Position numbers and translations under genes: made by a program. DNA of 63,366 nucleotides, from positions 1 to 63,366 of the forward strand of contig CAZJYD010000008.1 in assembly GCA_964550205.1 (NCBI GenBank). Direction: 5' to 3'. Positions 6,796 to 46,662 of the stretch are shown in pieces. Positions within the stretch are counted from its first letter, which is position 1, and the number at the start of each line of letters is the position of its first letter. The notes under the pieces were generated by a model. The model ran no database searches and was not told the origin of the DNA. It saw only the letters and a list, made by a program, of their open reading frames with translations. This DNA is from an uncultured Bacteroidales bacterium (lineage in GTDB: Bacteria > Bacteroidota > Bacteroidia > Bacteroidales > JAIOZK01).

Positions 6796-6797
6796 TT

Positions 6798-7797: not shown

Positions 7798-7843
7798 CAT
7801 CTTAATGTTTTTTATTGGTAAAAAGAGAATATATTAATTGATT

Positions 7844-8119: not shown

Positions 8120-8128
8120 TCTGTATTG

Positions 8129-9325: not shown

Positions 9326-9326
9326 T

Positions 9327-12392: not shown

Positions 12393-12744
12393 TTTCTTTA
12401 CATTCAAAATGAATTATAATAAAGAAGGATTAATTAAAGGACGTATTAATTTTAATAAAGATCATAATATCTTTAAAGGACATTTTCCTAAAAACCCAAT
12501 TGTTCCTGGTGTATGTCAAATTCAGGCTATTAAGGAAATAGCAGAATATATATTAGATAAAAATTTTATGCTTACCCGGGCCAGAAATATTAAATTCATT
12601 TCCATAATTAATCCTGTAGAAACACCCTTTGTTTATATGGAATTATCCTATGAATTTTTGGAAGATAACGAATTGGATATTAATTGTACTTTAATATTAG
12701 ATGATAAAGTATTTTTAAAATTCAGGGGTACATTTAGTGAATAA
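12376..12744 (+). CDS. FabZ-like 3-hydroxyacyl-ACP dehydratase
   Basis: GHFPKNPIVPGVCQIQAIKE matches the FabZ catalytic His and PGV motif. Confidence 0.8.
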   Translation: MMLSGDFFTFKMNYNKEGLIKGRINFNKDHNIFKGHFPKNPIVPGVCQIQAIKEIAEYILDKNFMLTRARNIKFISIINPVETPFVYMELSYEFLEDNELDINCTLILDDKVFLKFRGTFSE

Positions 12745-17749: not shown

Positions 17750-17756
17750 TAATGAT

Positions 17757-19250: not shown

Positions 19251-19288
19251 ATTAGCACGTTTTCGTATGCAGATTATAATTATATTAT

Positions 19289-19296
19289 TATATTTG
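19289..19296 (+). promoter_or_regulatory. candidate -7 promoter box
   Basis: tatatttg fits TAnnTTTG, 74 nt upstream of the ATG at 19370, in a 119-nt gap. Confidence 0.3.
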
Positions 19297-19369
19297 AACA
19301 TTATTTATAAAAAGTAAATTTTCTAAAATTAAATATTAAATAAAGCTTAAATAAATATTATTAATTAAT

Positions 19370-20680
19370 ATGATTATTCCTGCGATTGAGAAAAAAACGT
19401 TTAAGGAAATTGATGAATATCAGGAAAAAAGGCTTAAGGTTACTTTAGACTATATAAATAATAAATCAGTATTTTATCAATCATTTTTCAAAAAAAATAA
19501 AATTGATATATCAAAAATTAATACCCTTGAAGATATATCTTTTATTAAACCAACTACAAAATCCGATTTACAAAAAAATAATATGAATTTCCTGTGTGTT
19601 GACCGTAAACAAGTAATAGATTATAATACAACTTCAGGAACAACGGGAGATCCGGTTACCTTTGCCACAACGGAAAATGATCTTAAACGACTCGAATATA
19701 ATGAATACCTGTCATTTCTGTGTGCTAACGGAACCAGGGAGGATATTTATCAGATCATTGTTACGCTCGACAGAAGATTCATGGCAGGATTAGCATATTT
19801 TATGGGTGCAAGAAGGTTGGGGGCAGGAGTCGTTCGAGTGGGTCCGGGTAACCCGGAGCTGCATTTCGATACTATAAACAGGATTAAACCTACTTCACTT
19901 GTTACGGTTCCGTCTTTCATATTAAAACTTATAGATTATGCTGAAAAAAATAATATTGATTATAAAAATTCTTCGGTTAAGTCAGCGATTTGTATAGGCG
20001 AGCCTATCAGGAATATTAACCTGGATTACAATGTACTGGGAAGAAAAATATTATCAAAATGGAATTTACAATTGTTTTCAACCTATGCTTCTACAGAGAT
20101 GGGTGCGGCCTTTACTGAATGTATTGAAGGCAAGGGGGGACATCATCATCCAGAATTGTTAATAGTAGAATTTTTAGATAGTAATGATAATCCTGTCAAT
20201 GAGGGGGAAATCGGAGAATTAACAGTAACCACATTGGGTGTGGAAGCTATGCCTATGCTGCGATTCAAAACCGGGGATGTTTGCAAACATTACAAAGAAC
20301 CTTGCAAATGTGGCAGAAACACTATAAGAATTGGCCCTATACTTGGTAGAAAAAATCAAATGATAAAGTATAAGGGTACTACATTATATCCTTCTGCGTT
20401 TTATGATATTTTGAATGAGATAAGCGGAGTGAATACTTATGTAATTGAGTTATCAACAAGTAATATTAATACTGATGAAATACTTATTAAAATAGGCACT
20501 GAACGCAGAGATGAAGAATTGATAAAAAGAATAAAGAATCATTTCAGGGCCAAGTTAAGGGTTGCACCTGCTATTGAACTGTTTACAACTGAAGAAATAA
20601 CAAAGCTCCAATTTCCAAAAAACAGCAGAAAGGCCATCAAATTCATTGATAAAAGAAAAAATGCGTTTAATGGATGTTGA
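19370..20680 (+). CDS. PaaK/F390-synthetase-type adenylate-forming enzyme (aryl acid-CoA/ACP ligase)
   Basis: TSGTTGDPV adenylation motif, ~435-aa short ANL architecture typical of phenylacetate-CoA-ligase-like enzymes. Confidence 0.78.
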   Translation: MIIPAIEKKTFKEIDEYQEKRLKVTLDYINNKSVFYQSFFKKNKIDISKINTLEDISFIKPTTKSDLQKNNMNFLCVDRKQVIDYNTTSGTTGDPVTFATTENDLKRLEYNEYLSFLCANGTREDIYQIIVTLDRRFMAGLAYFMGARRLGAGVVRVGPGNPELHFDTINRIKPTSLVTVPSFILKLIDYAEKNNIDYKNSSVKSAICIGEPIRNINLDYNVLGRKILSKWNLQLFSTYASTEMGAAFTECIEGKGGHHHPELLIVEFLDSNDNPVNEGEIGELTVTTLGVEAMPMLRFKTGDVCKHYKEPCKCGRNTIRIGPILGRKNQMIKYKGTTLYPSAFYDILNEISGVNTYVIELSTSNINTDEILIKIGTERRDEELIKRIKNHFRAKLRVAPAIELFTTEEITKLQFPKNSRKAIKFIDKRKNAFNGC

Positions 20681-21824
20681 TAAAGAAATAGAATCACTGC
20701 GTCCTTATAAGAACTCAGAAGTTGCGGACGCAATTAACAGATTGATTTCACATCCCGGATTTGAAAGAATATGTAAATATTTATATCCCGGCCATTCAAC
20801 AAAAAAATTAATAGAATTACTTAGGAGTATTAATACTCTTGATGGATTTCAGAGTAAATTTTCACATGATGCAATTAAAACCGTACTTAAAAGAACATCA
20901 GACGGACTAACATATACAGGGATTAATAAACTTACTAAAAACCAGGGATATTTATTCATTGCAAATCACAGGGATATTATTCTGGATTCTGCTTTTATGG
21001 AATTGGCACTGGTAGAGAACAGATTTCCCACAACGCAAATCGCATTTGGCTCAAACCTTATGGCGAACCAGTTAATCACTGATCTGGCAAGACTTAATAA
21101 AGTTTTTATCATAAATAGAGGTGGTTCCAAAAAGGAAATATTTGAAAATACTTTGTTACGTTCAAAGTATATTCATAAGGTGGTTATTGAAAATAATGAA
21201 TCATTATGGATTTCACAAAGAAACGGCAGAACAAAAAACGGTGATGATAAAACACAAAGAGGATTGTTAAAAATGCTTGTCGGACCGCAAAATAATATAA
21301 TTCAAACCTTAATGAGATTGAATGTAATTCCGGTTACAATTTCATATGAGTATGAGCCCTGCGATATAGAGAAAGCTATTGAATTGTACATTTCTAAAAA
21401 AGCTAAATACAGGAAAAGCAAGAATGAAGATATAAATAGTATGCTGTCCGGAATCGTTAATCATAAAGGTCGCATGCATCTGACTTTTGGAAAACCTTTA
21501 AATGATGCACTTGAAAAAATGAAGGATGACAAACTCTTGCCGAATGATATATTTAACAACGCAGTGAATACTATCGATAACCAGATGTATAAGAATTACA
21601 AATTATGGAAAACAAATTACATTGCCTGGGACAAACTGAATAATAGCAAAAGATTTAATAATAAATATACCGAAGAAGAAAAGGAAAAATTTATAAATTA
21701 CCTGAATAACAAGATTAACAAAACTGATTTCACCTCAGAAAAAAATGAAATAGAAAGATTAATGATGGAAATATATTCCAATCCTGTTAATAATCTTGAT
21801 AAACTAGCCAACGTATTTTCCTGA
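20661..21824 (+). CDS. PlsC/LPLAT-type acyltransferase
   Basis: HX4D motif ANHRDIILD. Start uncertain: TTG 20646, ATG 20661 or ATG 20670. Confidence 0.75.
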   Translation: MRLMDVDKEIESLRPYKNSEVADAINRLISHPGFERICKYLYPGHSTKKLIELLRSINTLDGFQSKFSHDAIKTVLKRTSDGLTYTGINKLTKNQGYLFIANHRDIILDSAFMELALVENRFPTTQIAFGSNLMANQLITDLARLNKVFIINRGGSKKEIFENTLLRSKYIHKVVIENNESLWISQRNGRTKNGDDKTQRGLLKMLVGPQNNIIQTLMRLNVIPVTISYEYEPCDIEKAIELYISKKAKYRKSKNEDINSMLSGIVNHKGRMHLTFGKPLNDALEKMKDDKLLPNDIFNNAVNTIDNQMYKNYKLWKTNYIAWDKLNNSKRFNNKYTEEEKEKFINYLNNKINKTDFTSEKNEIERLMMEIYSNPVNNLDKLANVFS

Positions 21825-21852
21825 TTGATGTTATTTATTTCTTATCGATTAT

Positions 21853-21860
21853 TAAATTTG
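21853..21860 (+). promoter_or_regulatory. candidate -7 promoter box
   Basis: taaatttg fits TAnnTTTG, 56 nt upstream of the ATG at 21916. Confidence 0.3.
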
Positions 21861-21915
21861 CCGTTTTGTCTTTAGGAGAATATTCAAGTTATCTGATATC
21901 TTTAACAGATAAAAA

Positions 21916-23055
21916 ATGAAAATATATACAACAGGAGCGAACATTATAACATCACTTGGTTTTAATATTCAGAAGAATGTTGCACAGATAGAAAATGATA
22001 ATATTGGAATCAAATTAGATAATAGCAATCTTTTTGCTCCCTCGTTATTACCATTATCTTGTGTCAATAATGAAACACTTGGTAATAAAAGCAAAAAAAT
22101 TAATAACCACACCTCATACACCCGTTTTGAGAAATTATTGATTTTATCAATAGAAGATGCCTTGGAACAAGCATCTATTGATATTACAAGTGAGAAAACC
22201 GGGATAATTATTTCTACTACAAAAGGCAATATCGACTTGCTTGAGGAGAGGAATAAAGATTTGTTTCCTGCTGAAAGGATTTATTTATGGAAATCTGCGC
22301 AGATAATACAGGAATATTTAAAAAATCCTAATGCACCGATAATAATTTCAAATGCATGTATATCGGGAGTTGTAGGAATAATTACAGCAATGAGGCTAAT
22401 TGATTCAGGCAGATATGATCATGTAGTCGTTACAGGTGGAGATATAATGTCGAAGTTTGTGGTATCTGGTTTTTTGTCATTTATGTCATTAGATATTAAC
22501 CCATGTAAACCTTTTGATAAGAACAGGGAGGGCCTGACATTGGGAGAGGGTGCCGGCACTATTATTCTTTCTTCCGGAAGACATAATGATAAATACAAGG
22601 CTATATTTGTTAATGGATCATGCAGCAACGACGCCAACCATATTTCAGGACCGTCAAGGACAGGCGAAGGTTTATTAATAGCAATTAAAAACACGATAAA
22701 GGAAGATAAAAATATTGATTATATTTCAGCACATGGCACCGGTACTCTTTATAATGATGATATGGAATCAAAAGCATTAAAAAGGGCAGGAATTGCCAAT
22801 GTGCCTGTTAATAGTTTTAAGGGATATTTTGGACATACTCTTGGTGCTGCAGGAATTATTGAAACTATTTTGGGAATTTATTCCATGGAAAATAATGTTT
22901 TATTCAGAACAGCTAATTATGAAGAGTTTGGTGTAGCAGAAAATATTAATGTTATTTCCACTACAAGGGCGGAGGATATTAAAACGGTTTTGAAGACTGC
23001 ATCAGGATTTGGCGGGTGCAATGCAGCTTTATTAATCAAAAAAGGGATGAAATAG
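21916..23055 (+). CDS. beta-ketoacyl-ACP synthase (short KS)
   Basis: NACISGV (Cys), AHGTGT, GHTLGAAG, SGFGGCNA. Confidence 0.85.
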   Translation: MKIYTTGANIITSLGFNIQKNVAQIENDNIGIKLDNSNLFAPSLLPLSCVNNETLGNKSKKINNHTSYTRFEKLLILSIEDALEQASIDITSEKTGIIISTTKGNIDLLEERNKDLFPAERIYLWKSAQIIQEYLKNPNAPIIISNACISGVVGIITAMRLIDSGRYDHVVVTGGDIMSKFVVSGFLSFMSLDINPCKPFDKNREGLTLGEGAGTIILSSGRHNDKYKAIFVNGSCSNDANHISGPSRTGEGLLIAIKNTIKEDKNIDYISAHGTGTLYNDDMESKALKRAGIANVPVNSFKGYFGHTLGAAGIIETILGIYSMENNVLFRTANYEEFGVAENINVISTTRAEDIKTVLKTASGFGGCNAALLIKKGMK

Positions 23056-23110
23056 GCTATGAAATCTCAATAAGTTTGGAGGATTATATTAATAGTTTGA
23101 AAAAAGTACT

Positions 23111-23743
23111 ATGAAACCTGATTTGTATATTAGTAAATATGTCATAATAAGGAATAATAAAGTTTATGTTAATGGAGCACTGTTAATAGACAAGCAAAAC
23201 GAAATGCTTAAGTTCAGGCAATTTGCTAAGTCTGTTTATTCCTTTTATAACGTAAAATATCCGAAATATTTTAAAATGGATAATCATTGCAAACTTGGAT
23301 TTTTGGGAACAGAAATACTACTTCAGGATTTTTCTCTTTACAAATATAAACCCGATCAAATAGGAATAATTCTAAGTAATTCCGAATCATCATTATATAC
23401 TGACAGGGAATACCAAAAGTCTATAAATAATATACCAAGTCCTGCTCTTTTTGTTTATACGCTCCCTAATATACTTTTGGGTGAGGTTTGTATAAGAAAT
23501 AAAATAATGGGAGAAAATATCTTTTTTATTAATGAAAAATTTGATGCATCTGCTATTATGAATAATCTCGATCTGTTATTCAGTTATACAGATACATGCT
23601 TATGTATAACCGGTTGGGTAAATTTTGCAGATCCGGATAATTATGATTCAGTAGTTTATTTGGTTAGAAATGAAAAGGGTGATGATGATTTACTTGAATG
23701 CAATGTAGGTAACCTTAATAATATTTATAATTTTAGATTGTAA
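23111..23743 (+). CDS. KS N-terminal-like half-domain protein, no catalytic motifs
   Basis: 210 aa. LGFLGTEILL and PSPALFVYTLPN blocks resemble thiolase-fold N-halves, with no Cys/His/His motifs. Confidence 0.45.
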   Translation: MKPDLYISKYVIIRNNKVYVNGALLIDKQNEMLKFRQFAKSVYSFYNVKYPKYFKMDNHCKLGFLGTEILLQDFSLYKYKPDQIGIILSNSESSLYTDREYQKSINNIPSPALFVYTLPNILLGEVCIRNKIMGENIFFINEKFDASAIMNNLDLLFSYTDTCLCITGWVNFADPDNYDSVVYLVRNEKGDDDLLECNVGNLNNIYNFRL

Positions 23744-23802
23744 AAAGTTAGAAATTCTAATTAATGATAAACCAAAATTTGCAAATACCAGAAATCATTT
23801 GA

Positions 23803-24996
23803 ATGTTTGAGAAAACATATATAACAGGTTTAGGGATAATTAGTGCGATAGGTGATAACACGGAACAAAATCTACAATCACTGTTGAACAAGAAGTCGGG
23901 AATATCAAAGATTGAACTTCTTGATACTGTTCACAAAGATGACTTTGTTGCAGGTGAAATAAAACATACTAACGAAGAATTATCAAAACTCTTGAATATT
24001 GAATACCTTGATTATCCACGTGCAACTTTGCTTGGTATGATAGCAGCAAGGGAGGCTTATAATAATGCTGAAATAGAAGATAGCGGTGAACTACATACGG
24101 GTATTATAGCAGGAACTACAGTTGGTGGTATGGATAAAACAGAAAAGTATTATAAAAATACCGGCATGAATACTGAATTTATTCGTGCACATAATTGTGG
24201 TTACTGTACTGAAAGAATTGCTGAGTTATTAAATATTACTGAGTATGCCTCGAGTGTTAGTACTGCGTGTTCATCGGCTGCAAATGCAATACTTTTCGGA
24301 AGCATGTTAATAAGACACAATATTCTTGACAGGGTGATTGCGGGAGGAATGGATTGCCTTTCAAAATTTACATTAAACGGATTTAACACATTGTATATAC
24401 TGGATAAGGATCAATGCAAACCTTTTGACAAGAACCGGAAGGGATTAAATCTTGGTGAAGGAGCAGGATTTGTTGTAATTGAGTCGGAAAAGAGTATAAT
24501 GAGAAAAAGCAAGGATCCGATATGTGAATTAACAGGATATGCTAATTCTAATGATGCTTATCATCAAACGGCTTTGTCGCCTGATGCCGAAGGGCCTTAT
24601 TTAAGTATGAAAAAAGCATTGGAGACAGGTAATGTTCAGGAAGGTGATATAGATTATATTAATATGCACGGCACCGGTACGGAAAATAACGATATCACAG
24701 AAGTAAAAGCATTAAAAAGGCTATTTGGTGAGGATATACCGAAATTCAGTTCTACTAAATCATTTACGGGTCATACGCTTGGAGCGGCTGGTGGGATTGA
24801 GGCCATATACTCAATATTGGCTATGAAGTATAATTTCATTCCTCCTAATATTAATTATAACGTTCCGATGGAAGAACTCAGTACTATAATACCGGTTACT
24901 GAAGTAGTTCGTGATGTGAAATTGAAACATGTATTGTCGAATTCATTTGGTTTTGGAGGTAATGATTCTACGTTACTTTTTTCTAATCTGAAATAG
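23803..24996 (+). CDS. beta-ketoacyl-ACP synthase (KS, pair 2; paralogue of 8129-9325)
   Basis: STACSSAAN, MHGTGT, GHTLGAAGG. Long identical stretches shared with KS pair 1 (GGMDKTE, SKFTLNGF, CKPFD.NR.GLNLGEGA, IPKFSSTKS.TGHTLGAA). Confidence 0.9.
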   Translation: MFEKTYITGLGIISAIGDNTEQNLQSLLNKKSGISKIELLDTVHKDDFVAGEIKHTNEELSKLLNIEYLDYPRATLLGMIAAREAYNNAEIEDSGELHTGIIAGTTVGGMDKTEKYYKNTGMNTEFIRAHNCGYCTERIAELLNITEYASSVSTACSSAANAILFGSMLIRHNILDRVIAGGMDCLSKFTLNGFNTLYILDKDQCKPFDKNRKGLNLGEGAGFVVIESEKSIMRKSKDPICELTGYANSNDAYHQTALSPDAEGPYLSMKKALETGNVQEGDIDYINMHGTGTENNDITEVKALKRLFGEDIPKFSSTKSFTGHTLGAAGGIEAIYSILAMKYNFIPPNINYNVPMEELSTIIPVTEVVRDVKLKHVLSNSFGFGGNDSTLLFSNLK

Positions 24997-25003
24997 TAAT
25001 AAT

Positions 25004-26059
25004 ATGTTTATTAACGGAGTTGCAAATATTTCACCTCAGTGTACATTTGATACAAATGATTTTCTTACCGATATTATTGAGTGCAAAAGATATTTAACTT
25101 GCAAAGAGCCGGAGTATAAAAAATACATTGATGCGAAAAAACTTCGCAGAATGAGCAGAATTATGAGGATTGGAATGACTTCGGCAAAATATTGCCTTGA
25201 TTCGGCGGGTATTGAGCAACCGGATGCAATATTTGTTGGTACTGGTTTGGGGTGTTTAAAAGATACCGAGAAATTTTTAAATACAATGCTAGATTATAAT
25301 GAAAAGTTCCTGAATCCAACCTCTTTTATTCAATCAACTCATAATACTATCGGAGCTCAAATTTCTTTGATGTTGAAAAATTACAATGATAATATAACTT
25401 TTGTACATGAAAATGTTTCCTTTGAAAGTTCACTGATAAATGCTTATATGTATATAAGTGAAGGAAGAGCAAAAAATATACTTATCGGAGGTATTGATGA
25501 AATTACAGAAGATTATTATATCAAAAAAAAGCAGATCTCGGCATGGAAAGATGAGAATGTTGTCAATACACGACTTTATATGTCAAAAACGGTTGGCACC
25601 ATGCCCGGAGAAGGAGGGGCATTCTTTCTTGTATCGGATAAAAAAAATGAAATCACATATTCTCAAATGCTTGCAGTGGATGTAGTATATAAACTTAATG
25701 GTATTAATGACCTGGAAAAAAGATTTTTGAAAATACTTAATCAAAACAATCTGTCTTTGGATGATATAGACCTTGTTATTTTAGGAAATAACGGAGATGT
25801 GGATAATGATAAGATATATTATCAATTGATGGAAAGCATTTTCAGGAATAAACCTCTGGCATATTATAAACATTTATGTGGTGAATATGACACCTCTTCT
25901 GCTTTTGGTTTCTGGCTCGGAACAATGATAATCAAAAATAATAAAGTACCTGATCATTTATTAATATCGCAGAAAAAACCTGACAAATTACAGAACATTG
26001 TTTTATATAATCAGAGAAATAATACAAACCATTCAATAATTATTTTATCAAAACAATAA
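25004..26059 (+). CDS. KS-like chain-length-factor type protein (CLF, pair 2)
   Basis: Paralogue of 9327-10379 (PDAI..GT.LGC..DT.KFL, NPTSFI.STHNT, GG.DEITE, CGEYDT). No active-site Cys. Confidence 0.75.
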   Translation: MFINGVANISPQCTFDTNDFLTDIIECKRYLTCKEPEYKKYIDAKKLRRMSRIMRIGMTSAKYCLDSAGIEQPDAIFVGTGLGCLKDTEKFLNTMLDYNEKFLNPTSFIQSTHNTIGAQISLMLKNYNDNITFVHENVSFESSLINAYMYISEGRAKNILIGGIDEITEDYYIKKKQISAWKDENVVNTRLYMSKTVGTMPGEGGAFFLVSDKKNEITYSQMLAVDVVYKLNGINDLEKRFLKILNQNNLSLDDIDLVILGNNGDVDNDKIYYQLMESIFRNKPLAYYKHLCGEYDTSSAFGFWLGTMIIKNNKVPDHLLISQKKPDKLQNIVLYNQRNNTNHSIIILSKQ

Positions 26060-26087
26060 ATCAAATGTTTAACTTAAATTATTAATT

Positions 26088-26732
26088 ATGAGAAAAAAAA
26101 CAAGCAGTTTATTAGTATTGGTTGCATTATTTGTAACCTTTGTATTTGCGGGTTGTGCTGTATCCCGAAAAGTTCAGTACGACAGGTTGAATTTAAATTT
26201 GCCTGAAGTAAAAACAGAAAGTGTCAGCATTGCAACCTGGGATCAAAGGAGTCAAATCCTTGATGGTTCGCGTAAACCTGATTTTGTAGGTTATATGAGG
26301 TCAGGTGCAGGAATAGCATACCCTATGGGTACAAAATCAGGAAAACCTTTTACTGATGACCTTTCAACTACCATTGCCGAGGCCTTTAATGAAGAAGGTT
26401 GTAGCACATCTATTATTAAAACTACTTATGATCAAGAAGAAGATGCAATAATAGATAATCTGTTAAGTAGTGGAAATGAAAGATTGATACTATTGAAATT
26501 GGATAAATTATATACTGATGGATACGGGGTTCAGGTTCTTAACTACGATATGCAATTAAGTATATACGATGCCAGCGGAGAATTAATGGCAAGTGAAAGC
26601 AATGAGGGCAATAATGAAATTGGAGGAAATGCTTTCTGGGGACCCGGTGATTACAAACAATATATGCCAACCGCATTAAAGATTATATTGGAAAATATGT
26701 TCAGTGATTCAAGTATAAAAGAAGCGCTATAG
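26088..26732 (+). CDS. lipoprotein of unknown function
   Basis: Signal peptide ending in the lipobox FAGC. Confidence 0.55.
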   Translation: MRKKTSSLLVLVALFVTFVFAGCAVSRKVQYDRLNLNLPEVKTESVSIATWDQRSQILDGSRKPDFVGYMRSGAGIAYPMGTKSGKPFTDDLSTTIAEAFNEEGCSTSIIKTTYDQEEDAIIDNLLSSGNERLILLKLDKLYTDGYGVQVLNYDMQLSIYDASGELMASESNEGNNEIGGNAFWGPGDYKQYMPTALKIILENMFSDSSIKEAL

Positions 26733-26915: not shown

Positions 26916-28253
26916 ATGAATATATTACTGATAAATCCGCCACGTTCGCCGTATAATAATATTTTATCCAATGCTTCAGAAGAAGCAAAACAATTCATAC
27001 ATAAAAAGCTTATAGGTCCTCCGTTAGGACTATTAACTATAGCAGAAGCAGCAAAAGAATATAATGTAACTTTATTTGATACTAAAGGTGAATATGATCT
27101 CAAGCCGGACACTCCTCCTTTAAAAGAACTCACACTTAAATTACTTGAGAAATATAAACCTGATGTAGTAGGCGTTACTATAATTACATCGGAATTTAAT
27201 TTTGCCCTGGAAATATTTGACGTTGTTAAACAATACGATCCTGAAATACTAACTGTAGCTGGAGGTTTACATGCAACATTATGCCCGGAGGATTTCAATT
27301 TACAAACTATTGATATAGTTTGCCCGGGTCAGGCAGGGAATACATTCAGGGAAGTTATCAGAGCCAAAGAAAAAAACCGGCCATACACTGATGTTGCCGG
27401 CATATATATTAATACACAAGTTGGGCTAGAGAAAACAAAAGTCCCTGCAAATAACTGGAATGCTGCAGGTGATGATTTTCTAATGCCTGACCGCACCCTG
27501 CTGGAAAGATGGAGATCGACTTACAGGGTGAAATCGGCTCCTTATCCTACTACATATACATTTACTTCTTTGGGCTGCCCTTACAGGTGTTCCTTTTGTT
27601 CAATATGGTGTGAATTCCAGGGTAAGTTTTTTCAGCGTAATGTTGAAAGTATTATCGAAGAATTAAAACACATTGATTATAATATTGTACGTTTTGCCGA
27701 TGCAAATACCATTGTAAATGTGGACTTTGTAGAGCAATTATTTGACAGGATAGAAGAAGAAGGAATTAAAAAGGAATATGTTATGGATATAAGGGCTGAT
27801 ACTGCTGTTAAATATCCCTGGCTCATTGAAAAGCTTGCAAAAAACGGCCTGAAGGTTGTCATATGCGGATTTGAATCTTATAAAGATTCTGAATTAAAGG
27901 AATATAATAAAAATACTTCGGCAGGTTATATTGAGGAAGCCGTTAATATATTTCATAATAACGACATATTAATCAGGGGGAATTATGTTATACCACCCCA
28001 TTATGATAAAGATGATTTTAAAGCATTGGCTGAATATGCCAATTCACATAAGGTTAATTATGCCGGATATACTATTCTTACACCTTTACCCGGCACACCT
28101 TTCTATAAAAAAGTAAAGGATCAGATCATTGATCACGACTATGCCAAATACAACTTTTTTAACTGTGTATTAAAAACGAAGTTGCCGCTTGAGGAGTTTT
28201 ATTATAGTATTGGTTCTTTGTGGTTGATAAAAAGAGGAGTGGATACTATATAA
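26916..28253 (+). CDS. B12-binding-domain radical SAM enzyme (rSAM 1)
   Basis: N-terminal cobalamin-domain-like blocks (KPDVVGVT, AGGLHAT). CX3CX2C CPYRCSFC at nt 27576-27599. ATG at 26916 preferred over the TTG at 26904. Confidence 0.85.
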   Translation: MNILLINPPRSPYNNILSNASEEAKQFIHKKLIGPPLGLLTIAEAAKEYNVTLFDTKGEYDLKPDTPPLKELTLKLLEKYKPDVVGVTIITSEFNFALEIFDVVKQYDPEILTVAGGLHATLCPEDFNLQTIDIVCPGQAGNTFREVIRAKEKNRPYTDVAGIYINTQVGLEKTKVPANNWNAAGDDFLMPDRTLLERWRSTYRVKSAPYPTTYTFTSLGCPYRCSFCSIWCEFQGKFFQRNVESIIEELKHIDYNIVRFADANTIVNVDFVEQLFDRIEEEGIKKEYVMDIRADTAVKYPWLIEKLAKNGLKVVICGFESYKDSELKEYNKNTSAGYIEEAVNIFHNNDILIRGNYVIPPHYDKDDFKALAEYANSHKVNYAGYTILTPLPGTPFYKKVKDQIIDHDYAKYNFFNCVLKTKLPLEEFYYSIGSLWLIKRGVDTI

Positions 28254-28319: not shown

Positions 28320-28616
28320 TTAGTTTTTATTACAATATTTGCAATTATTTTCCTGGTTGAATCTTGTAAGAAAGATGATGAAAACGATTCCGAACCCAAC
28401 AATGTCTGGTTTAATTCTTTTTGGTATGGATTCTATTTCTTCATCAATTATCCTGATATGATAATTATCAGGTGTAAGTGCTGCCAGGGTGGGTAATGCC
28501 AGCGAAGTGTTGACAATTATTTTGCCCATAATGCGAGCCATGGTGAATTGCGTTGCGTATTGCTTGTATTTCTGAAAAGAATTTACTAAAAAAAGTTTGT
28601 ATTTTTTGTTATTCAA
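28320..28616 (-). pseudogene. truncated N-terminal stub of a fourth B12-binding radical SAM gene
   Basis: The 98-aa ORF matches rSAM N-termini only (LALPTLAALTPDNYHIRIIDEEIE...KPDIVGFG, compare rSAM 3 PVVFAATLPDYVSVDLIDENVE...VDFVGIS). It then diverges and stops, with no CX3CX2C in any frame downstream. Confidence 0.55.
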
Positions 28617-28620: not shown

Positions 28621-29733
28621 TTATCTTTTTCCTGCTGTAAAGCCTGCCTGCATAAATTTACTTACCTCAGTGACAAAACTAAGAATCAGATCATTTTTTT
28701 CTAATTTTTCTTCACGCAGAATTTTATCCAGGCAAATAAAGGCCATTGGGGGTCCATTATATCCCAGAGAGGATAACTTAGTATAGACCTTTTCTTTTGA
28801 AATTCCAAGTGATTCGCATTCCTCTATTATTAATTCTGCTATATGCCGGGAAGGAAAATTGATCTGAAAAAAACGTATTTTGTTAACATCAATGTCATAT
28901 TGTTTTATCATTCGCTTTAAACCTTTATAAAATACCGATCCGTCTTTTTCAATAAATTGCTTTCTTAATTGTTCATTAAATATTTGTTTAAGATGGTGGT
29001 AACCTTCCTCGTATTCTACCCTGGGATTCATCCAGTAGGCCGGTCGCTTATTATACATAGCCGGAGATTTTTTGCCTCCGGCGGATTCCATATATACATT
29101 CTCAAGAAATATACCATCATCTTTATCCGTGCTATTTTCAAGCAATACAGCGCCGGCCCCATCACTTAAAAAATACCTCAGGAAAAGTTCCTCCTTTTTT
29201 ATTTTTTTTTGATTGTAATAGTCTGCTCTTAATTCTGATGATGGAATATTCGAAGAAAGAACTAATGCATTGTTATACCTGCCTGATTTGATGAGTTCAT
29301 ATGCTGTAAGAAGAGCTTTATAAGCAGAAGTGCAATTTGCATGTATTGAGATTTCGCCGCATCTTTCAATACCCAATATGTCTTGTATCATAACTGATGG
29401 AGTGGGCATCTGGTCCTGATGTGGGCTTCCATATGCAATAAATTCTATGTCTTTTTTTTGAAATCCTGCCATTTGTAAAGCTTTTTCTGCAGCTTTAACT
29501 GACATGGAAATGTTATCATCAGTATATTTCCTGGTTAACGGATCTATTGCAAAATAATACTGATCTACTTCAAGTAGTTCGTGCATTATGTTTTTTGTCC
29601 TGTTTAACCATTTAACTATCTTATGAGGAGTATTAAGGAATTTCCCAAGGTAATTATCAATTTCTTCAAAAGAAACAGGTTTACCGGGAAGGTATGTGCC
29701 TGTTCCGGTAATTTTTACTTTACGGTTATTCAT
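28621..29733 (-). CDS. KAS III-like / DarB-like thiolase-fold protein with atypical triad
   Basis: Clear paralogue of DarB at 36744-37883 (YLPGKPVS.EE...YLG, FLR..LSDGAGAVL.EN). Cys134 is retained (HANCTSAY). The DarB His and Asn positions read Asn292 and Tyr325 in ungapped local alignment. Confidence 0.75.
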   Translation of the reverse strand: MNNRKVKITGTGTYLPGKPVSFEEIDNYLGKFLNTPHKIVKWLNRTKNIMHELLEVDQYYFAIDPLTRKYTDDNISMSVKAAEKALQMAGFQKKDIEFIAYGSPHQDQMPTPSVMIQDILGIERCGEISIHANCTSAYKALLTAYELIKSGRYNNALVLSSNIPSSELRADYYNQKKIKKEELFLRYFLSDGAGAVLLENSTDKDDGIFLENVYMESAGGKKSPAMYNKRPAYWMNPRVEYEEGYHHLKQIFNEQLRKQFIEKDGSVFYKGLKRMIKQYDIDVNKIRFFQINFPSRHIAELIIEECESLGISKEKVYTKLSSLGYNGPPMAFICLDKILREEKLEKNDLILSFVTEVSKFMQAGFTAGKR

Positions 29734-30413
29734 GATTTATTTTTTTCAAACTTTACAAACTTATCCAGTTCATCTTTAAGAAATATTGGATTGTAAGAAT
29801 CCTTAATGGTAAGTGCAAACTTTTCGGCAAAAACAACGGATGTCTTCTTTGGGACAATGTGATCTATTAGTTTCATTGATTTTGCTTCTTCAGGTGATAA
29901 GCTATCTCCGGAAAGAACGTATTCTATAGTTTTTGCTTTATGTGCATGAAGAAAAAAATTCTGAATACCGCCAATTCCAGGAATTAAATTAAACATGGAC
30001 TCGGGCAGGCTCAAATATGAACCTTCCTCACAAATCCTTACATTTGCAAATAATGCCAATTCAAGCCCCGCTCCTATACATACACCTCTTATCGCCGCAA
30101 TAACAGGGATATTCATCTTTTTTAAAGAGTAAAATGAATCTACGTTTTCCTTAAGAAAATCAGGTATTTTATCATTGGTATATTTCTTTTGTTTATTTAT
30201 TTGTTTTAAAAGATCATCCAGATCGGCCCCGGAAGAAAAATGACGACCTTTATTATACAATAAAATAGCCTGAACATCACTATTTGTTAATATATTGCTG
30301 ATCAGATTCTTGAAATCATTGTAGAAATGAGTGTCCATTCTGTTATCCGGTGGATTACTTAAAACAATATGTCCTATGTTCTGGATTTTTTTCCAATCAA
30401 TTCTTTCCATCAT
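29730..30413 (-). CDS. crotonase-fold enoyl-CoA hydratase/isomerase family protein (ECH 1)
   Basis: GRHFSSGADL oxyanion loop, CIGAGLELAL, LPES. 227 aa. Confidence 0.82.
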   Translation of the reverse strand: MMERIDWKKIQNIGHIVLSNPPDNRMDTHFYNDFKNLISNILTNSDVQAILLYNKGRHFSSGADLDDLLKQINKQKKYTNDKIPDFLKENVDSFYSLKKMNIPVIAAIRGVCIGAGLELALFANVRICEEGSYLSLPESMFNLIPGIGGIQNFFLHAHKAKTIEYVLSGDSLSPEEAKSMKLIDHIVPKKTSVVFAEKFALTIKDSYNPIFLKDELDKFVKFEKNKS

Positions 30414-30787
30414 ACACAGGTTTCATTGTTACTTAACTGGTAAACTACATATCCAGTTGCATAGTTTCGTGAATGGGATATCGAGCAATCAATACTTTTG
30501 ATATTAATATCTTTTAATTTCTTTTGGATTTCTTTATGAGTTTTTAGCACTGGTTTTCCAAGATCATTATTCAAAATTTCAATATAACGATAATTTATGT
30601 TTGAAATCAGAATTTTGTCAATTATGCACTTTTTTATAATAAAACGACCAGCTAAACTTCTGTATGCATTTTTTACGGGATAATTCCTGATTTCATTAAT
30701 TGTAAAGTATTTATTTATAAATTGTTCATTTTCTGCCATTGCCTTGAATTTTCCCAATTCTATTATGTCAAATTTTTCTTTTATCAT
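30410..30787 (-). CDS. AcpS-type 4'-phosphopantetheinyl transferase (PPTase 1)
   Basis: FDIIELGKF (GIDIxxIxR-like), RFIIKKC, SISHSRNYATGYV. Start trimmed to the ATG at 30787 to avoid overlap with ECH 2. Confidence 0.68.
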   Translation of the reverse strand: MIKEKFDIIELGKFKAMAENEQFINKYFTINEIRNYPVKNAYRSLAGRFIIKKCIIDKILISNINYRYIEILNNDLGKPVLKTHKEIQKKLKDINIKSIDCSISHSRNYATGYVVYQLSNNETCV

Positions 30788-30791
30788 TAGA

Positions 30792-31532
30792 TTAATCCTG
30801 CTTTTTATAAGGTTTTTGTGATGCCAATTCAAAAAACAACCTGGCATTCTCATACAGCGCTTCCTCATAAGTCATAGTTCGAATGTTATTTATTGATTGC
30901 ATAACACTGTTTATGATTGTTAGTGGCCTGTCATTAGTAATTCTTTTTAGTAATTCTATCGAAAACTCAAATGCCTTTTTTGATGGAACAAGATAGTCGA
31001 CCAAATGTATTCGGTGTGCCGTATTGGCATTAATGGTTTCACCTGATAATACCAGCTCAATACTTTTACCCTGTGATTGTAAAATATTTTGTATTCTTTG
31101 AATTCCGCCCAAACCAGGTATCAGATTATTAATTATCTCAGGAAATGCAAATAAAGATCTTTCCGAAGCTATTCTTATATGACATGCCAATGCGATTTCC
31201 AATCCTCCCCCAAAACAGATCCCTTCAATGGCAGCAACTATTGGAATATTTATGTTTTCAAGGTAGTTTAATACTTCATTGCCAAGATTTATTTCAGAAT
31301 GGAAATTTTTTCTTTTTACATCTTTGTATATCTTTTCTATATCGGCACCCGCAGAGAAATGTTTTCCTTTACCCTGAATAATAATTCCTTTAAGTGAATT
31401 ATTTTTGACAAAATCAATTAATTTATTTTTTTCTAACAGAACAGGGCTTTTTAAATAATTATGCGGAGTATCATTTATTGTAATGATACCGATTGAATTA
31501 TCTGTGTTTAGATCGACTGGATTTTTTTCCAT
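30792..31532 (-). CDS. crotonase-fold enoyl-CoA hydratase/isomerase family protein (ECH 2)
   Basis: GKHFSAGADI, CFGGGLEIAL, FPEI. 246 aa. Confidence 0.82.
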   Translation of the reverse strand: MEKNPVDLNTDNSIGIITINDTPHNYLKSPVLLEKNKLIDFVKNNSLKGIIIQGKGKHFSAGADIEKIYKDVKRKNFHSEINLGNEVLNYLENINIPIVAAIEGICFGGGLEIALACHIRIASERSLFAFPEIINNLIPGLGGIQRIQNILQSQGKSIELVLSGETINANTAHRIHLVDYLVPSKKAFEFSIELLKRITNDRPLTIINSVMQSINNIRTMTYEEALYENARLFFELASQKPYKKQD

Positions 31533-31534
31533 TA

Positions 31535-31918
31535 TTAGCTGTAAAGTTTTTCCGGTACATCAACCGGATTAAGTTCACTGTCAACCATCAACGCTTTTGT
31601 CTTTGACTTTGAAGCCAGTTTATTGTCTTTTTGTATAAATATCTTTTGTAAAAATACCAAATAAGGGGTTTCCATTTTTATCGATGTTTGTATTTCCACC
31701 TCGTCAAATAATTTTAATTCTTTGATATAACGAATATTTGTTTCAATCACTACAATGGAGTATTTATTATTTGAAAGATAATCAAGCATATCCAATTCCT
31801 TGAATACACACCATCTTGCCTGCTCAAGATAATTAAGATAAACAGCATTATTTAAGTGATTAAAACTATCAAGTTCATAACCTCTCACGGTTATATTATA
31901 TTTAAAGTGCTTGTTCAT
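31535..31918 (-). CDS. 4HBT/YbgC-type acyl thioesterase
   Basis: VRGYELDSFNHLNNAVYLNY hot-dog thioesterase signature. Confidence 0.72.
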   Translation of the reverse strand: MNKHFKYNITVRGYELDSFNHLNNAVYLNYLEQARWCVFKELDMLDYLSNNKYSIVVIETNIRYIKELKLFDEVEIQTSIKMETPYLVFLQKIFIQKDNKLASKSKTKALMVDSELNPVDVPEKLYS

Positions 31919-33329
31919 TTTTTGTATTTATTTTTTTTAAAATCTTATTGTGTTCGTGCTTTACAATTTTTTTCAATGGCATTTGGGTAAAATACGCGAA
32001 AAATGTTTTATGAATAATATCTGATATATGGTGGTTTTTATTTTTGCGGAATTTGTTGAAATAGAACAATGTTCGTTTTAGTATTTCTTTTCTGCTGTAC
32101 CCCTTGTTTTCGATGTTTAATAATGCTTTTATTAATTCATTATTACTAATGTTTTTATTAGGAACATTTGTAGCATTTGTATTAATATTGAGTAATTTGC
32201 CTTCTTTCTCCAACCGTTCAAATAAACGGCTTCCATGAAGTGCATAAACAGGATTGATTACAGGGAATATATTTGTTTCCCTGCAAAACTCTAATGTCTC
32301 ATAATAGGATTTTACAGTATCATTTTCATATCCGATTGTAAACCAGCCTGATAATATGATGCCTGAGTCCTGAAGGAATTCTATTTTATCCTTCATATCA
32401 GAAACCACATCATTGTCTTTTTGTATTCCCATCTTTTTTATGCTTCCGCTGGTTTTCAGGGTGTCAGGATTTATCGATTCCAACCCGACAGCAGCATATA
32501 TCAAACCGGATTCAACAGCCTTTTTTATTACTTTGCGCCCTTCATTTGAGGCAACTGCTTTTAAATTGGCCTGACCCATCCAGTATTTTTTCCCTGGCAA
32601 TTTACTTATTCGGTCATACAATTCATAATAGTAGTCATAGGATCCTTTTCTTCCGAAAACATTATCATCTATGAGGTAATAATAGCCTTTGAATTTCTTT
32701 ATTTCATTAACAACATCATTAATTGGTCTTGTTCTCGTATTTTTACCGAATACTTTTGATACAAGGCAAAAATCACAATCTATCGGACAGCCTCGTGAAG
32801 CATAGACCGTATCAAATTTATACTTATTCTTAAATGCATTGTGTGCAGGTCTTTTAATGGATTTAAGATCCGGTAAGTTATCAAGAAAATGTACGGTATA
32901 ATTTCCTGCATTAAATTCATTTGGAGAACATACATAAAAGTCTTTTAATTTATTATTTTCAAAATCACACAGTAATCGAGGCCATAGAAGTTCTCCCTCG
33001 CCAATTACTACTGCGTCGGCATGCTGTTTTGATACATAAGGATTAGCTGAAGCCTGCGGACCTCCCAAAATAACCGGTATATAATTTTTTCTGAATTTGT
33101 CAGCTATTTCAAATGCACTTTTCTCAGATGACATCTTTACACTTATCCCTACCAGGTCGGTTTTGTCATTATAATTTATTTTATCTCTTTTGCTATTTAA
33201 TAGATCAATTAAAGTATAATTGTGTTCAGGAGCTGCACTTACCAGGGTGGATAGCGATAAAGGCATAAATAATCTTCTTCCTTTTACATGGTCATCTTCT
33301 TCGGCTGCTAATATCAATTTAATATTCAT
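31902..33329 (-). CDS. B12-binding-domain radical SAM enzyme (rSAM 2)
   Basis: DLVGISV and LGGPQAS cobalamin-domain-like blocks. CX3CX2C CPIDCDFC at nt 32766-32789. Confidence 0.85.
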   Translation of the reverse strand: MNIKLILAAEEDDHVKGRRLFMPLSLSTLVSAAPEHNYTLIDLLNSKRDKINYNDKTDLVGISVKMSSEKSAFEIADKFRKNYIPVILGGPQASANPYVSKQHADAVVIGEGELLWPRLLCDFENNKLKDFYVCSPNEFNAGNYTVHFLDNLPDLKSIKRPAHNAFKNKYKFDTVYASRGCPIDCDFCLVSKVFGKNTRTRPINDVVNEIKKFKGYYYLIDDNVFGRKGSYDYYYELYDRISKLPGKKYWMGQANLKAVASNEGRKVIKKAVESGLIYAAVGLESINPDTLKTSGSIKKMGIQKDNDVVSDMKDKIEFLQDSGIILSGWFTIGYENDTVKSYYETLEFCRETNIFPVINPVYALHGSRLFERLEKEGKLLNINTNATNVPNKNISNNELIKALLNIENKGYSRKEILKRTLFYFNKFRKNKNHHISDIIHKTFFAYFTQMPLKKIVKHEHNKILKKINTKNEQAL

Positions 33330-33604: not shown

Positions 33605-35284
33605 GTGAAAAAAAGATCTGTGTTTACTAAGATATTGAAGATAACAGGAATAAGTCTGTTGGCTATTCTGATTATTTCATATGTATATGTAAAACTTGTT
33701 AGCAGGGTTGAACCTCCGGAAGTTCCTGTAACAGATATTGTAAAGGCCAAAGTTGTTACTAAAGATAATAACTTTTACAGTATAGGCAATTGCTGGCTGA
33801 AAGAGAGCGAAACAGGTATATGGGAGCTTTATATTGAAGGCAGCGCTTTTGAAAGAGGTGTGATTATAGGTAAACTTACCAAGGATTTAATAAGAAAACA
33901 GGAAGAAATATTTGTGTCAAAAGTAAAAGAATTTGTGCCTTCCCCAATTTATCGCAGCTTTTTGCAGATGATGATTGAGTATTTCAACCGTAATCTTGAT
34001 AGTAAGATACCGGATGAATACTTAAAGGAGATATACGGTATATCTTTATCAGCTTCAAAGGATTTTAATAGATACGGTTCACCATATATGAGAATTCTGA
34101 ATTATCATGCGGCTCATGATATAGGGCATGCTCTGGCAGATTATTCTTTTGTTGGTTGTACTTCATTTTCTTATTGGGATGTTACTAGAAAAGATACCTT
34201 GTTGATAACCGGTAGGAATTTTGATTTTTCAATAGGTGACGAATTTGCAGAAGATAAGATAGTTGCTTTTTTTGCTCCTGATGAAGGGAATAAATTTGCT
34301 TTTGTAACATGGGGAGGTATGATTGGTGTGGTTTCAGGAATGAATTGCCAGGGGATTTCGGTTACTATTAACGCTGCTAAGTCAGAATTGCCTATATCAT
34401 CGTCTACACCGATCTCAATCCTTACACGTGAAATTTTACAATATGCCGGAAATATTGATGAGGCTGTTAAGATAGCGAAAAAAAGACAAACCTTTGTTTC
34501 GGAATCAATATTGGTTAGCTCAGCAAGTGATGGTAAAACAATAATTATAGAGAAAACACCTTTAAAAGAAGCTGTCGTTTTTCCTGATTCCAATTATATA
34601 ATCTGTACAAATCATTTCAGAAGCAGGGTTTTCAGCGATACCAGTTTACCATCTTCAACCTCAAAATACCGTTATAAAAGAGTTAAGGAGCTATTTAACA
34701 GATACGATTCAATAACACCCGAAATAGCTGCAAGCATATTAAGAAACCGAAAAGGATTAAATGATGCGGATATTGGTAATGGAAATGAAAAAGCTATAAA
34801 TCAATTAATTGCACATCACTCTGTTCTTTTTGATTTATATAATAAGATAATGTGGGTATCTGCAAACCCTTATAATTTAGGTAAATATGTGGCTTATGAT
34901 TTGAATAAAGTATTTAAGGATTACAACGGATTAAAAGAAAATAAAGAAATTTACAATAAAGAGCTGAGCATACCACCCGACACTTTTTTGTTTACCAATG
35001 ATTATCAGCAGTTTATTAAATATAAAAGCCTGAGGAAAAAGATATTAAAGGCAACAGACAAAAGTAGGAGAATCAGTGCAGATACTTTAAAATTGTTTAG
35101 ATCCACAAATCCGGAATATTTTGAATTATATCTGGTTTTGGGTGATTATTATAAGAGCATACATCAATATAATAAAGCCATTGACAATTATAATATAGCA
35201 TTATCAAAAGAAATCGACTCTGAGAATAATGAAAAGAAAATATCAGAAAACCTTGAGGCATGCCTCGAAAATGCTAAAAGATAG
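33605..35284 (+). CDS. C45-family (Ntn, acyl-CoA:6-APA acyltransferase-like) protein with N-terminal membrane anchor and C-terminal TPR-like tail
   Basis: Hydrophobic N-terminus ITGISLLAILIISYVYV. Gly-Cys site FVGCTSFS (Cys185, nt 34157-34159). GTG start. Confidence 0.65.
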   Translation: MKKRSVFTKILKITGISLLAILIISYVYVKLVSRVEPPEVPVTDIVKAKVVTKDNNFYSIGNCWLKESETGIWELYIEGSAFERGVIIGKLTKDLIRKQEEIFVSKVKEFVPSPIYRSFLQMMIEYFNRNLDSKIPDEYLKEIYGISLSASKDFNRYGSPYMRILNYHAAHDIGHALADYSFVGCTSFSYWDVTRKDTLLITGRNFDFSIGDEFAEDKIVAFFAPDEGNKFAFVTWGGMIGVVSGMNCQGISVTINAAKSELPISSSTPISILTREILQYAGNIDEAVKIAKKRQTFVSESILVSSASDGKTIIIEKTPLKEAVVFPDSNYIICTNHFRSRVFSDTSLPSSTSKYRYKRVKELFNRYDSITPEIAASILRNRKGLNDADIGNGNEKAINQLIAHHSVLFDLYNKIMWVSANPYNLGKYVAYDLNKVFKDYNGLKENKEIYNKELSIPPDTFLFTNDYQQFIKYKSLRKKILKATDKSRRISADTLKLFRSTNPEYFELYLVLGDYYKSIHQYNKAIDNYNIALSKEIDSENNEKKISENLEACLENAKR

Positions 35285-43019: not shown

Positions 43020-43066
43020 TTTTGTTTTTCTGTTTTAAGATAGAAAGCAATTTGGAGGAAGATAAA

Positions 43067-44605: not shown

Positions 44606-44618
44606 ATAATAAAAAATT

Positions 44619-45341: not shown

Positions 45342-45365
45342 TTTCTGCATATAAAATTTAAAAAT

Positions 45366-46583: not shown

Positions 46584-46662
46584 TAACCTGAATTTGCAAT
46601 GAATAAAAATATGCTTGATAATAACTTATCGGAATTAATCTGTTTATTGTAAACTACTGTAA

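Follow-up and report, generated by a model that had tools for sequence, protein, structure and literature searches.

B12-type radical SAM proteins of a conserved add-on module in a flexirubin cluster variant of uncultured Bacteroidales

Flexirubins are the textbook chemotaxonomic pigments of aerobic Bacteroidota and, to our knowledge, their pathway has so far been held to need only enzymes of the type II fatty acid synthase (FASII)/polyketide synthase (PKS)-like kind. Here we analyzed a 63,366-bp stretch of DNA (32% GC; contig CAZJYD010000008.1, the whole of which is called the window below) from an uncultured Bacteroidales bacterium, in which three genes for B12-type radical S-adenosylmethionine (SAM) proteins, R1, R2, and R3, lie inside a flexirubin/dialkylresorcinol (DAR) pigment cluster. 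For the flxA–flxY cluster of Chitinophaga pinensis and the cluster of Flavobacterium johnsoniae, gene table and text list no radical SAM gene (Schoner 2014). The ring methyl group of flexirubin derives from methionine, and ring methylation in C. pinensis is attributed in the gene table to the class-I methyltransferase FlxJ. A literature search did not find "flexirubin" together with "radical SAM", and "aryl polyene" (APE) combined with "radical SAM" returned only generic surveys of biosynthetic gene clusters. The claim of an initial annotation of this DNA, that described flexirubin pathways do without such enzymes, holds within the reach of these tables and searches.

Radical SAM enzymes, including one with a B12 domain, are encoded in the "ladderane-type" FASII clusters of anammox bacteria and Desulfotalea, the function of which is unresolved (Rattray 2009, and a review), and clusters of the antiSMASH "ladderane" class have been reported, product-less, from many anaerobic phyla. 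DarB/StlD-type enzymes convert a beta-ketoacyl thioester and a 2-enoyl thioester to a carboxy-cyclohexanedione, which DarA/StlC aromatizes. In the window, a canonical flexirubin gene set is joined by what we call the add-on module, defined as those cluster genes to which nothing in the flx table of C. pinensis corresponds. R1–R3 track this module, not the aryl-polyene genes, and as a set they are widespread and very well conserved. We consider it somewhat probable that they are dedicated, conserved enzymes of this module in a flexirubin-cluster variant of anaerobic Bacteroidales, and that they functionalize unactivated carbons, with C-methylation as the likeliest reaction.

The flexirubin gene set and R1–R3

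The cluster extends over ~5.7–54.2 kb of the window. Five flexirubin/DAR equivalogs scored over their NCBIfam cut-offs, namely FlxA (815 bits; cut-off, 700), FlxY (673 bits; cut-off, 520), LolA2 (209; cut-off, 125), DarB, and DarH, and LolB2 reached 59.6 (cut-off, about 60). DarA shares 37% identity over 98% of its length with the open reading frame (ORF) that precedes a DarB homolog and acpP on the Burkholderia plasmid NZ_CP009155; the arrangement there is the classical darABC one, and the plasmid DarB homolog is 51% identical to the DarB of the window. Further flx genes were assigned with Pfam: ketosynthase/chain-length factor (KS/CLF) pairs, ketoreductase (KR), dehydratases (DHs), thioesterase (TE), deacetylase, GT2-DUF2062 glycosyltransferase (GT), CrtD-like oxidoreductase, C45 acyltransferase, and an MMPL-PlsC-methyltransferase fusion. 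FlxA, FlxY, DarA/DarB, LolA2/LolB2, and FlxP–FlxW are all present, and the canonical genes map one-to-one onto flxA–flxY of C. pinensis. Judged by this gene content, the cluster is a genuine flexirubin pathway; the initial annotation had placed the three proteins in a polyketide-pigment cluster. The genes left without a C. pinensis counterpart encode R1–R3, an StlD/DarB-like KS, two enoyl-CoA hydratases (ECH), a second 4HBT thioesterase, a 3-hydroxyacyl-CoA dehydrogenase (HCDH), a FabF-like KS with acyl carrier protein (ACP), phosphopantetheinyl transferase (PPTase), and acyltransferase (AT), a second DarG/DarH pair (DarG2/DarH2), an O-methyltransferase (OMT), a sulfotransferase, and several small proteins.

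R1 (445 aa; 26916..28253, + strand), R2 (475 aa; 31902..33329, −), and R3 (421 aa; 52466..53731, +) lie in three separate same-strand runs, 5728–28253 (+), 33329–28621 (−), and 43022–54171 (+). Translation confirmed their CX3CX2C motifs, CPYRCSFC in R1 (nt 27576–27599), CPIDCDFC in R2 (nt 32766–32789), and CKFNCYPC in R3 (nt 52982–53005); the initial annotation had given these motifs to the nucleotide and had assigned the proteins to three different transcription units. We set the start of R1 at the ATG at 26916 because R1 orthologs open with M(K/N)ILLIN. The motif cysteines are invariant in the family alignments (C221/C225/C228 in R1, C181/C185/C188 in R2, and C173/C177/C180 in R3). R1 scored 63.3 bits with Radical_SAM (cut-off, 29.5) and 59.3 with the B12-binding domain PF02310 (cut-off, 32.1), and R2 scored 37.5 bits with Radical_SAM, above the cut-off of 29.5, and carries a C-terminal DUF4070 domain. 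Precomputed assignments include PF02310 and PF04055 for most R2 and R3 homologs, and PF02310 likewise for R1 homologs.

In AlphaFold models, the N-terminal domain is a confident Rossmann-type beta-alpha fold. With this domain and CX3CX2C in the radical SAM core, R1–R3 have the class B architecture that the initial annotation had recognized. This architecture covers methylases (TsrM, TokK, CysS, MgmA, and HpnR), the cyclase BchE, and the rearrangement enzymes OxsB and HpnJ, and AprD4 is a cobalamin-free dehydratase that belongs to it as well. The best PDB folds for the R1 model (predicted TM-score (pTM), 0.71) were TsrM, OxsB, AprD4, MgmA, and TokK; Foldseek E-values against TsrM, OxsB, MgmA, and TokK ranged from 1e-10 to 2e-14 with query TM-scores (TMq) of 0.52–0.60. 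The R3 model was mediocre (pTM, 0.47) and matched AprD4, TsrM, MgmA, and CysS, with TM-scores that are informative for architecture only. PDB sequence searches with R1–R3 gave only remote matches, with phmmer E-values no better than 1e-8. In pairwise BLASTP comparisons, R1, R2, and R3 are homologous (E-values of 5e-12, 2e-11, and 2e-27) and 24–27% identical, and they are therefore ancient paralogs, not recent duplicates.

We used NCBIfam equivalog scoring as a subgroup test, which the initial annotation had suggested. R1 aligned over residues 36–430 with both HpnR (TIGR04367; 134.3 bits, cut-off 650, E 4.5e-39) and BchE (TIGR02026; 110 bits, cut-off 481, E 1.4e-31), while R2 and R3 reached 34.7 and 40.6 bits with the BchE model (cut-off, 481). 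With the ladderane-type B12-radical SAM model TIGR04072 (cut-off, 360), the scores were 18.6 (R1), 48.8 (R2), and 49.4 bits (R3). The top NCBIfam scores of R2 and R3 came from the uncharacterized MJ_1487 family, the MCR glutamine methylase, HpnJ, and the ladderane-type B12-radical SAM family; the HpnJ model was matched by all of R1–R3 below its cut-off, and no flexirubin-named NCBIfam model matched any of them. The test assigned the proteins to no characterized equivalog. Because no equivalog was reached and the PDB sequence matches are remote, R1–R3 are new subfamilies inside the class-B-type architecture. R1 as a true HpnR or BchE was rejected, as the scores are far below the cut-offs and the context is without hopanoid or bacteriochlorophyll genes.

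Neighborhoods of R1–R3 in relatives

A single-protein scan of genome contigs with R1 returned one locus (L001), and searching metagenomes with an R1 alignment gave 80 loci; these 80 and L001–L003 made up 83 loci that were compared with all window proteins. Where the source of an R1, R2, or R3 ortholog is named, it belongs to the Bacteroidales or Lentimicrobiaceae. Metagenome orthologs are 62–71% (R1), 68–75% (R3), and 47–57% (R2) identical to the window proteins, which places R1 and R3 among the best-conserved proteins of the cluster (62–75% identity versus 34–50% for AT, FlxU, and FlxT). The neighbors of R1 orthologs are homologs of this cluster's genes in varied order: in the 83 loci we counted AT 33 times, ACP 30, DarG2 22, DarH2 21, FabF-like KS 18, sulfotransferase 14, R2-like 14, R3 13, GT2 13, FlxU 12, HCDH 11, the 124-aa protein u124 10, FlxY 5, FlxA 4, and KS/CLF 4–5 times. 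The initial annotation had made its reading depend on co-conservation with pigment-cluster genes in other genomes, and such co-conservation is what we found. Of the loci, 32 are 15 kb or longer; one or more add-on-module genes are present in 30 of these and a polyene- or DAR-specific gene in 11, and two have neither. No canonical DarB or DarA homolog was found near R1 in the loci of relatives.

Two relatives are particularly informative. In GCA_964468645 (contig CAYXUU010000003, at about 31–60 kb), R1, R2, R3, and a fourth radical SAM protein, R4 (521 aa), stand together in a compact cluster of ~28 kb with the StlD-like KS, two ECHs, TE, HCDH, KS, AT, three ACPs, DarG2/DarH2, sulfotransferase, u124, LolA, LolB2, an ApeI-type DH, and an outer-membrane protein; FlxA, FlxY, KS-CLF, and DarB are all missing from this cluster. 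L001 comes from a metagenome-assembled genome with 53.5% GC that is labeled deltaproteobacterial, and its operon reads R4-ACP-PPTase-CrtD-like-KS-StlD-like KS-AT-HCDH-ECH-ECH-R1, followed by DarG2-DarH2. Neither in L001 nor in L086–L088 did we find FlxA, FlxY, or KS-CLF within ~10 kb of the module. Because of GCA_964468645, L001, and the lack of DarA/DarB near R1, the radical SAM genes are tied to the add-on module over the aryl-polyene genes.

The StlD-like KS of the module scored 141 bits with the StlD/DarB family model (cut-off, 450), had StlD as its best PDB match (full length, E 1.5e-21), and is ~22–25% identical to the true DarB of the window. It is conserved at 55–65% across loci (L001, L030, L040, L064, L083, L084, and L088), and in none of the 88 loci of relatives (L001–L088) does a DarA-type aromatase stand beside it; in relatives it is flanked within the same operon by R2 and R4. 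R2 is the first gene of an R2-TE-ECH-ECH-StlD-like KS operon, and the same order was found in L030, L086, and L088. Just upstream of R2 in GCA_964468645 lies a 46-aa ORF (L086 3643–3783/L088 9861–10001); in the window, we saw nothing convincingly equivalent ahead of R2.

Of 18 loci with R3, 13 have the sulfotransferase upstream of it and four have FlxW (L043, L061, L064, and L085, where it is directly upstream). Directly after R3, in 15 of the 18, comes u124, whose homologs are 33–47% identical; it may assist R3 as a partner or by presenting the substrate. Neither u124 nor u204, u210, and u214 had a Pfam or NCBIfam match. The sulfotransferase-R3-u124 genes of CP070687 (L084 1–9982) directly adjoin genes for an APS kinase and for members of the PAPS_reduct and GTP_EFTU families. 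This cysC/cysD/cysN-like set beside the sulfotransferase suggests that the product is sulfated via 3'-phosphoadenosine 5'-phosphosulfate (PAPS).

The three paralogs of the initial annotation are the three intact ones, and this number proved to be an undercount. A 98-aa ORF at 28320–28616 (−) aligns over 72 aa, at 58% identity, with the N-terminal part of the 521-aa R4 (L088:14431–15996; E 9e-27). It takes the place of R4, which in relatives stands immediately downstream of the StlD-like KS, between this KS and HCDH. It is a truncated R4, the remainder of the gene having been deleted. Misassembly was rejected as the cause, since the junction is contained in independent contigs that were assembled from two runs of a microbial-mat metagenome. 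Across the loci, the radical SAM ORFs form six families (at least 40% identity within and 21–31% between families), three of which are in the window. Two extra B12-radical SAM families (457–475 aa), one of them directly downstream of R1, were seen in relatives and are absent from the window (L003 11366–12784; L064 11446–12873; L083 6866–8269; also L059, L068, L069, and L076).

Proposed function and alternative readings

The function that we favor for R1–R3 can be outlined from gene content. The KS/ACP/AT, HCDH, and ECH of the add-on module would provide beta-keto- and enoyl-acyl thioesters, which the StlD-like KS would join to a second lipid of the cyclohexanedione/resorcinol type. R1–R3 would cleave SAM reductively at a [4Fe-4S] cluster to give a 5'-deoxyadenosyl radical, probably with methylcobalamin, and would functionalize unactivated carbons of the alkyl or ring moiety independently of O2, most likely by site-specific C-methylation. 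The DarG2/DarH2 pair may perform an acyl transfer, the O-methyltransferase and sulfotransferase may decorate hydroxyls, and the product would be exported by LolA2/LolB2/FlxU. C-methylation is rated likeliest because most characterized class B enzymes are methyltransferases and the nearest family to R1 is that of a lipid C-methylase. Architecture, cluster membership, co-conservation, and the tie to the module are shown by the comparisons above; the use of cobalamin by R1–R3, their substrate, and their reaction type are predictions.

Several observations speak against this proposal. No curated equivalog cut-off was reached by R1–R3 in NCBIfam, and the class-B-type architecture itself houses methylases and non-methylases alike. 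The cobalamin-free AprD4 shares the architecture and is among the top fold matches. The B12-binding scores of R2 (19.9 bits) and R3 (31.6) are below the cut-off of 32.1, and R3 is under the cut-off of 29.5 for Radical_SAM PF04055 as well (20.8 bits); these weak scores are offset by the domains of the homologs and the invariant cysteines, which support both families. A search of the window against Rfam gave zero matches, a cobalamin riboswitch included, and no B12 gene was found there either; among RNA runs, none was found that covers it. Methylation could be served by three class-I methyltransferases that the window also encodes. As for linkage, two genomes that are complete or nearly so have the cluster genes spread over several loci. 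In CP070687, R1 (L002) has a PlsC-type acyltransferase as its only cluster-like neighbor, and another locus holds the cysC/D/N-like genes, sulfotransferase-R3-u124, an FlxY-like ligase, and StlD-like KS-ECH-ECH-TE; in a 3.75-Mb genome, one locus holds R1, another radical SAM gene, AT, ACP, and KS, and another holds FlxT-FlxU-FlxV-FlxW-R3-u124-OMT.

The strong rival is a non-methylating reaction of class-B-type enzymes on the product of the StlD-like KS, such as C–C bond formation, cyclization, ring contraction, dehydrogenation, or aromatization, because R2 and R4 flank this KS and no DarA accompanies it. One variant would be an O2- and DarA-independent conversion of the carboxy-cyclohexanedione; another would be carbocycle-forming chemistry of the type that is proposed for ladderane clusters and has been shown for BchE, HpnJ, Tes, and GrsA. 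The absence of a DarA homolog with this KS from all 88 loci, the match of R1 to BchE (110 bits) and of R1–R3 to HpnJ, the weak matches of R2 and R3 to TIGR04072 (about 49 bits), the appearance of OxsB and AprD4 among the fold matches, and the many genes, radical SAM genes included, shared with the anammox and Desulfotalea clusters all fit such chemistry. All of these family matches, however, are far under their cut-offs, the majority of characterized class B enzymes methylate, a canonical DarA exists in the window, and the radical SAM enzymes of ladderane-type clusters have no established chemistry according to the review. We regard a non-methylating role as possible but doubtful. A more specific version, in which the radical SAM proteins stand in for a missing DarA of canonical DAR biosynthesis, was rejected, as DarA is present. 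It is a rather unlikely, more far-reaching proposition that R1–R4 and the additional families, the DarA-less StlD-like KS, ECH/HCDH, and the sulfotransferase build an undescribed lipid scaffold by new C–C-forming or aromatizing chemistry. If true, radical chemistry could yield a sulfated lipid of the cyclohexanedione/resorcinol type, carbocyclic or multiply branched, that resides in the outer membrane. Uncultured anaerobic Bacteroidales from mats, sediments, and digesters would carry it widely, and some Desulfobacterota-like lineages would have it as well.

The initial annotation had looked to the aryl polyene itself, with C-methylation of the aryl ring, cyclization or cross-linking of the polyene, and an anaerobic replacement of O2-dependent tailoring. 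R1 closes the plus-strand run that holds the KS/CLF genes in the window, R1 orthologs stand beside FlxA in four loci, FlxY in five, and KS/CLF pairs in four to five, and a ring methyl derived from methionine, as reported in the literature, would suit such tailoring. Against it, the R1–R4 module occurs with no FlxA, FlxY, or KS-CLF nearby, FlxJ, a methyltransferase of class I, is credited with ring methylation in C. pinensis, and enzymes of that class are encoded in the window as well; moreover, radical chemistry is unnecessary for an activated phenol ortho carbon. For these reasons aryl-ring methylation is the less probable reading. The idea of an anaerobic substitute has gained no specific support, because DarA is present and the only O2-dependent canonical step that we found missing is that of the optional halogenase FlxK. 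We consider aryl-polyene tailoring by R1–R3 unlikely; the interpretation in the initial annotation was right in part. Finally, R1–R3 might be housekeeping or otherwise unrelated radical SAM proteins that merely lie near the cluster, for example hopanoid C-3 methylases, the label that JGI gives to several R1 orthologs, and the solitary R1 of one complete genome, apart from cluster genes except for a PlsC-type acyltransferase, could be read in this way. The HpnR score of 134 bits against a cut-off of 650, the absence of hopanoid genes from the window and from the related loci examined, and a linkage to the cluster that survives many rearrangements and extends to another lineage (L001, 53.5% GC) make this very improbable, and the JGI labels are over-annotations.

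Taken with ~80 related metagenomic loci, the window reveals a conserved extension of the flexirubin cluster in uncultured, apparently anaerobic Bacteroidales. This extension comprises a sulfotransferase, a second condensing enzyme of the DarB-like kind, and between three and five B12-type radical SAM enzymes, which are oxygen-sensitive. From it one would expect a family of modified pigment-lipids, which may be sulfated and C-methylated, in anoxic mats and sediments. For enzymology, it provides several new and highly conserved class B radical SAM subfamilies whose genetic context is defined.

Gene order in the window and comparison with known systems

The cluster is flanked on the left by sugar-nucleotide genes and on the right by DUF5063, FeoAB, RecA, and further housekeeping genes. 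Upstream of R1, the plus-strand run 5728..26732 holds canonical flexirubin/APE genes, assigned with Pfam and NCBIfam: class-I methyltransferase, DH, TE, ACP (7838–8119), KS/CLF, FlxP deacetylase, LolA2, LolB2, a further DH, FlxT (GT2), FlxU (MMPL-PlsC-methyltransferase), FlxV (CrtD-like), FlxY ligase, an acyltransferase, KS, a second KS/CLF pair, and a lipoprotein. The FlxU-type fusion (13916–17749, +, 1277 aa) combines an MMPL/RND-type exporter, a PlsC-type acyltransferase, and a class-I methyltransferase. R1, HpnR/BchE-like and a member of neither family, follows, and beyond it on the minus strand lies the R4 remnant (28320..28616), with ~74 recognizable N-terminal residues.

The remnant borders the add-on module operon 28621..31918 (−), in which Pfam assigned the StlD/DarB-like KS (28621–29733; also matched by the StlD/DarB family model and, in the PDB, by StlD), ECH (29730–30413), a PPTase-like 152-aa protein (30410–30868), the second ECH (30792–31532), and the 4HBT thioesterase (31535–31918), with R2 at its head. 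Between the start of R2 and FlxW, the segment 33209–33475 has a contig word depth of 54–67x compared with ~7x in the flanks and a loose end at 33364; it contains the GC-rich hairpin CCCCTGCTCGCAGGGG within AT-rich DNA and has the appearance of a small multi-copy repeat element. The FlxW-type C45 autoproteolytic acyltransferase (33605..35284, +; Pfam AAT; NCBIfam C45_proenzyme, 206 bits, cut-off 85) comes next.

On the minus strand there follow DarH (35318–36325; NCBIfam 462, cut-off 300), which NCBIfam names a BtrH-related acyltransferase, DarG (36326–36730; DarG_fam 144, cut-off 70), DarB (36744–37883; 586, cut-off 550), and DarA (37971–38882, 303 aa; assigned by homology and synteny with the plasmid NZ_CP009155 ORF). 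A source paper for the names DarG and DarH was not found in the literature, and the Azoarcus paper gives those letters to other genes. Beyond DarA lie, by Pfam, the add-on AT (38879–39799), PPTase (39792–40178), ACP (40196–40501), FabF-like KS (40581–41798), and HCDH (41816–42862), all on the minus strand.

The last plus-strand run opens with FlxA tyrosine ammonia-lyase (TAL), FlxB-type KR, FlxC-type KS, and FlxE-type LpxL acyltransferase (43022..47553; FlxA by NCBIfam, the rest by Pfam and the C. pinensis flx table). It continues with DarG2 (47644–48120; NCBIfam 65, cut-off 70) and DarH2 (48117–49133; 331, cut-off 300); R1 is accompanied in relatives by this pair (47644–49133), and the other pair (35318–36730, −) stands beside DarA/DarB. 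Behind it are the add-on ACP (49139–49420, 93 aa), a secreted 204-aa protein of the module, the O-methyltransferase (50283–51374) and sulfotransferase (51371–52456), both assigned with Pfam, then R3 (Pfam and family alignment) and its downstream partner u124 (53797..54171). Two 93-aa ACPs, at 7838–8119 (+) and 49139–49420 (+), which are too short for an ORF list that starts at 100 aa, and the one at 40196–40501 (−) make at least three ACPs in the cluster.

Like the clusters of C. pinensis and F. johnsoniae, the window has FlxA, FlxY, KS/CLF, KR, DHs, TE, FlxP, LolA2/LolB2, FlxT, FlxU, FlxV, FlxW, and DarA/DarB/DarG/DarH. Those clusters are without radical SAM genes, an StlD-like second KS, an ECH pair, HCDH, and a sulfotransferase, whereas the window has all of them; in contrast to C. 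pinensis, it has no counterpart of the flavin halogenase FlxK. In the StlD/StlC and DarB/DarA pathways the likeness lies in the condensing enzyme, the KS co-transcribed with R2 being closest to StlD in the PDB, but this KS is without an adjacent DarA/StlC aromatase and is flanked instead by B12-radical SAM genes. Among individual enzymes, HpnR and BchE share with R1 the domain order and a near full-length alignment, and HpnR also acts on the lipid class of substrates; however, R1 stays below the equivalog scores, and hopanoid or bacteriochlorophyll genes are not nearby. TsrM, TokK, CysS, MgmA, and OxsB have the same two-domain fold as R1 and R3 but are only 13–17% identical in sequence and act on unrelated substrates (peptides, carbapenem, and nucleoside), and AprD4, which binds no cobalamin, matches the fold of R1 and R3 equally well.

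The ladderane-type clusters and the window share FabF paralogs (KS/CLF), ACP, a phytoene-desaturase-like oxidoreductase, a phenylacetyl-CoA-ligase-like (FlxY-like) enzyme, a GT, a polysaccharide-deacetylase-like protein, and radical SAM genes. They differ in that R1–R3 fall outside TIGR04072 and that the window has TAL, DarAB, the StlD-like KS, ECH/HCDH, and the sulfotransferase, and ladderanes are not expected from the window cluster. The ladderane-type FASII cluster is nonetheless the nearest described APE/flexirubin-like analog with radical SAM genes in anaerobes, and through the window the flexirubin/APE clusters become linked to these clusters of other anaerobes.

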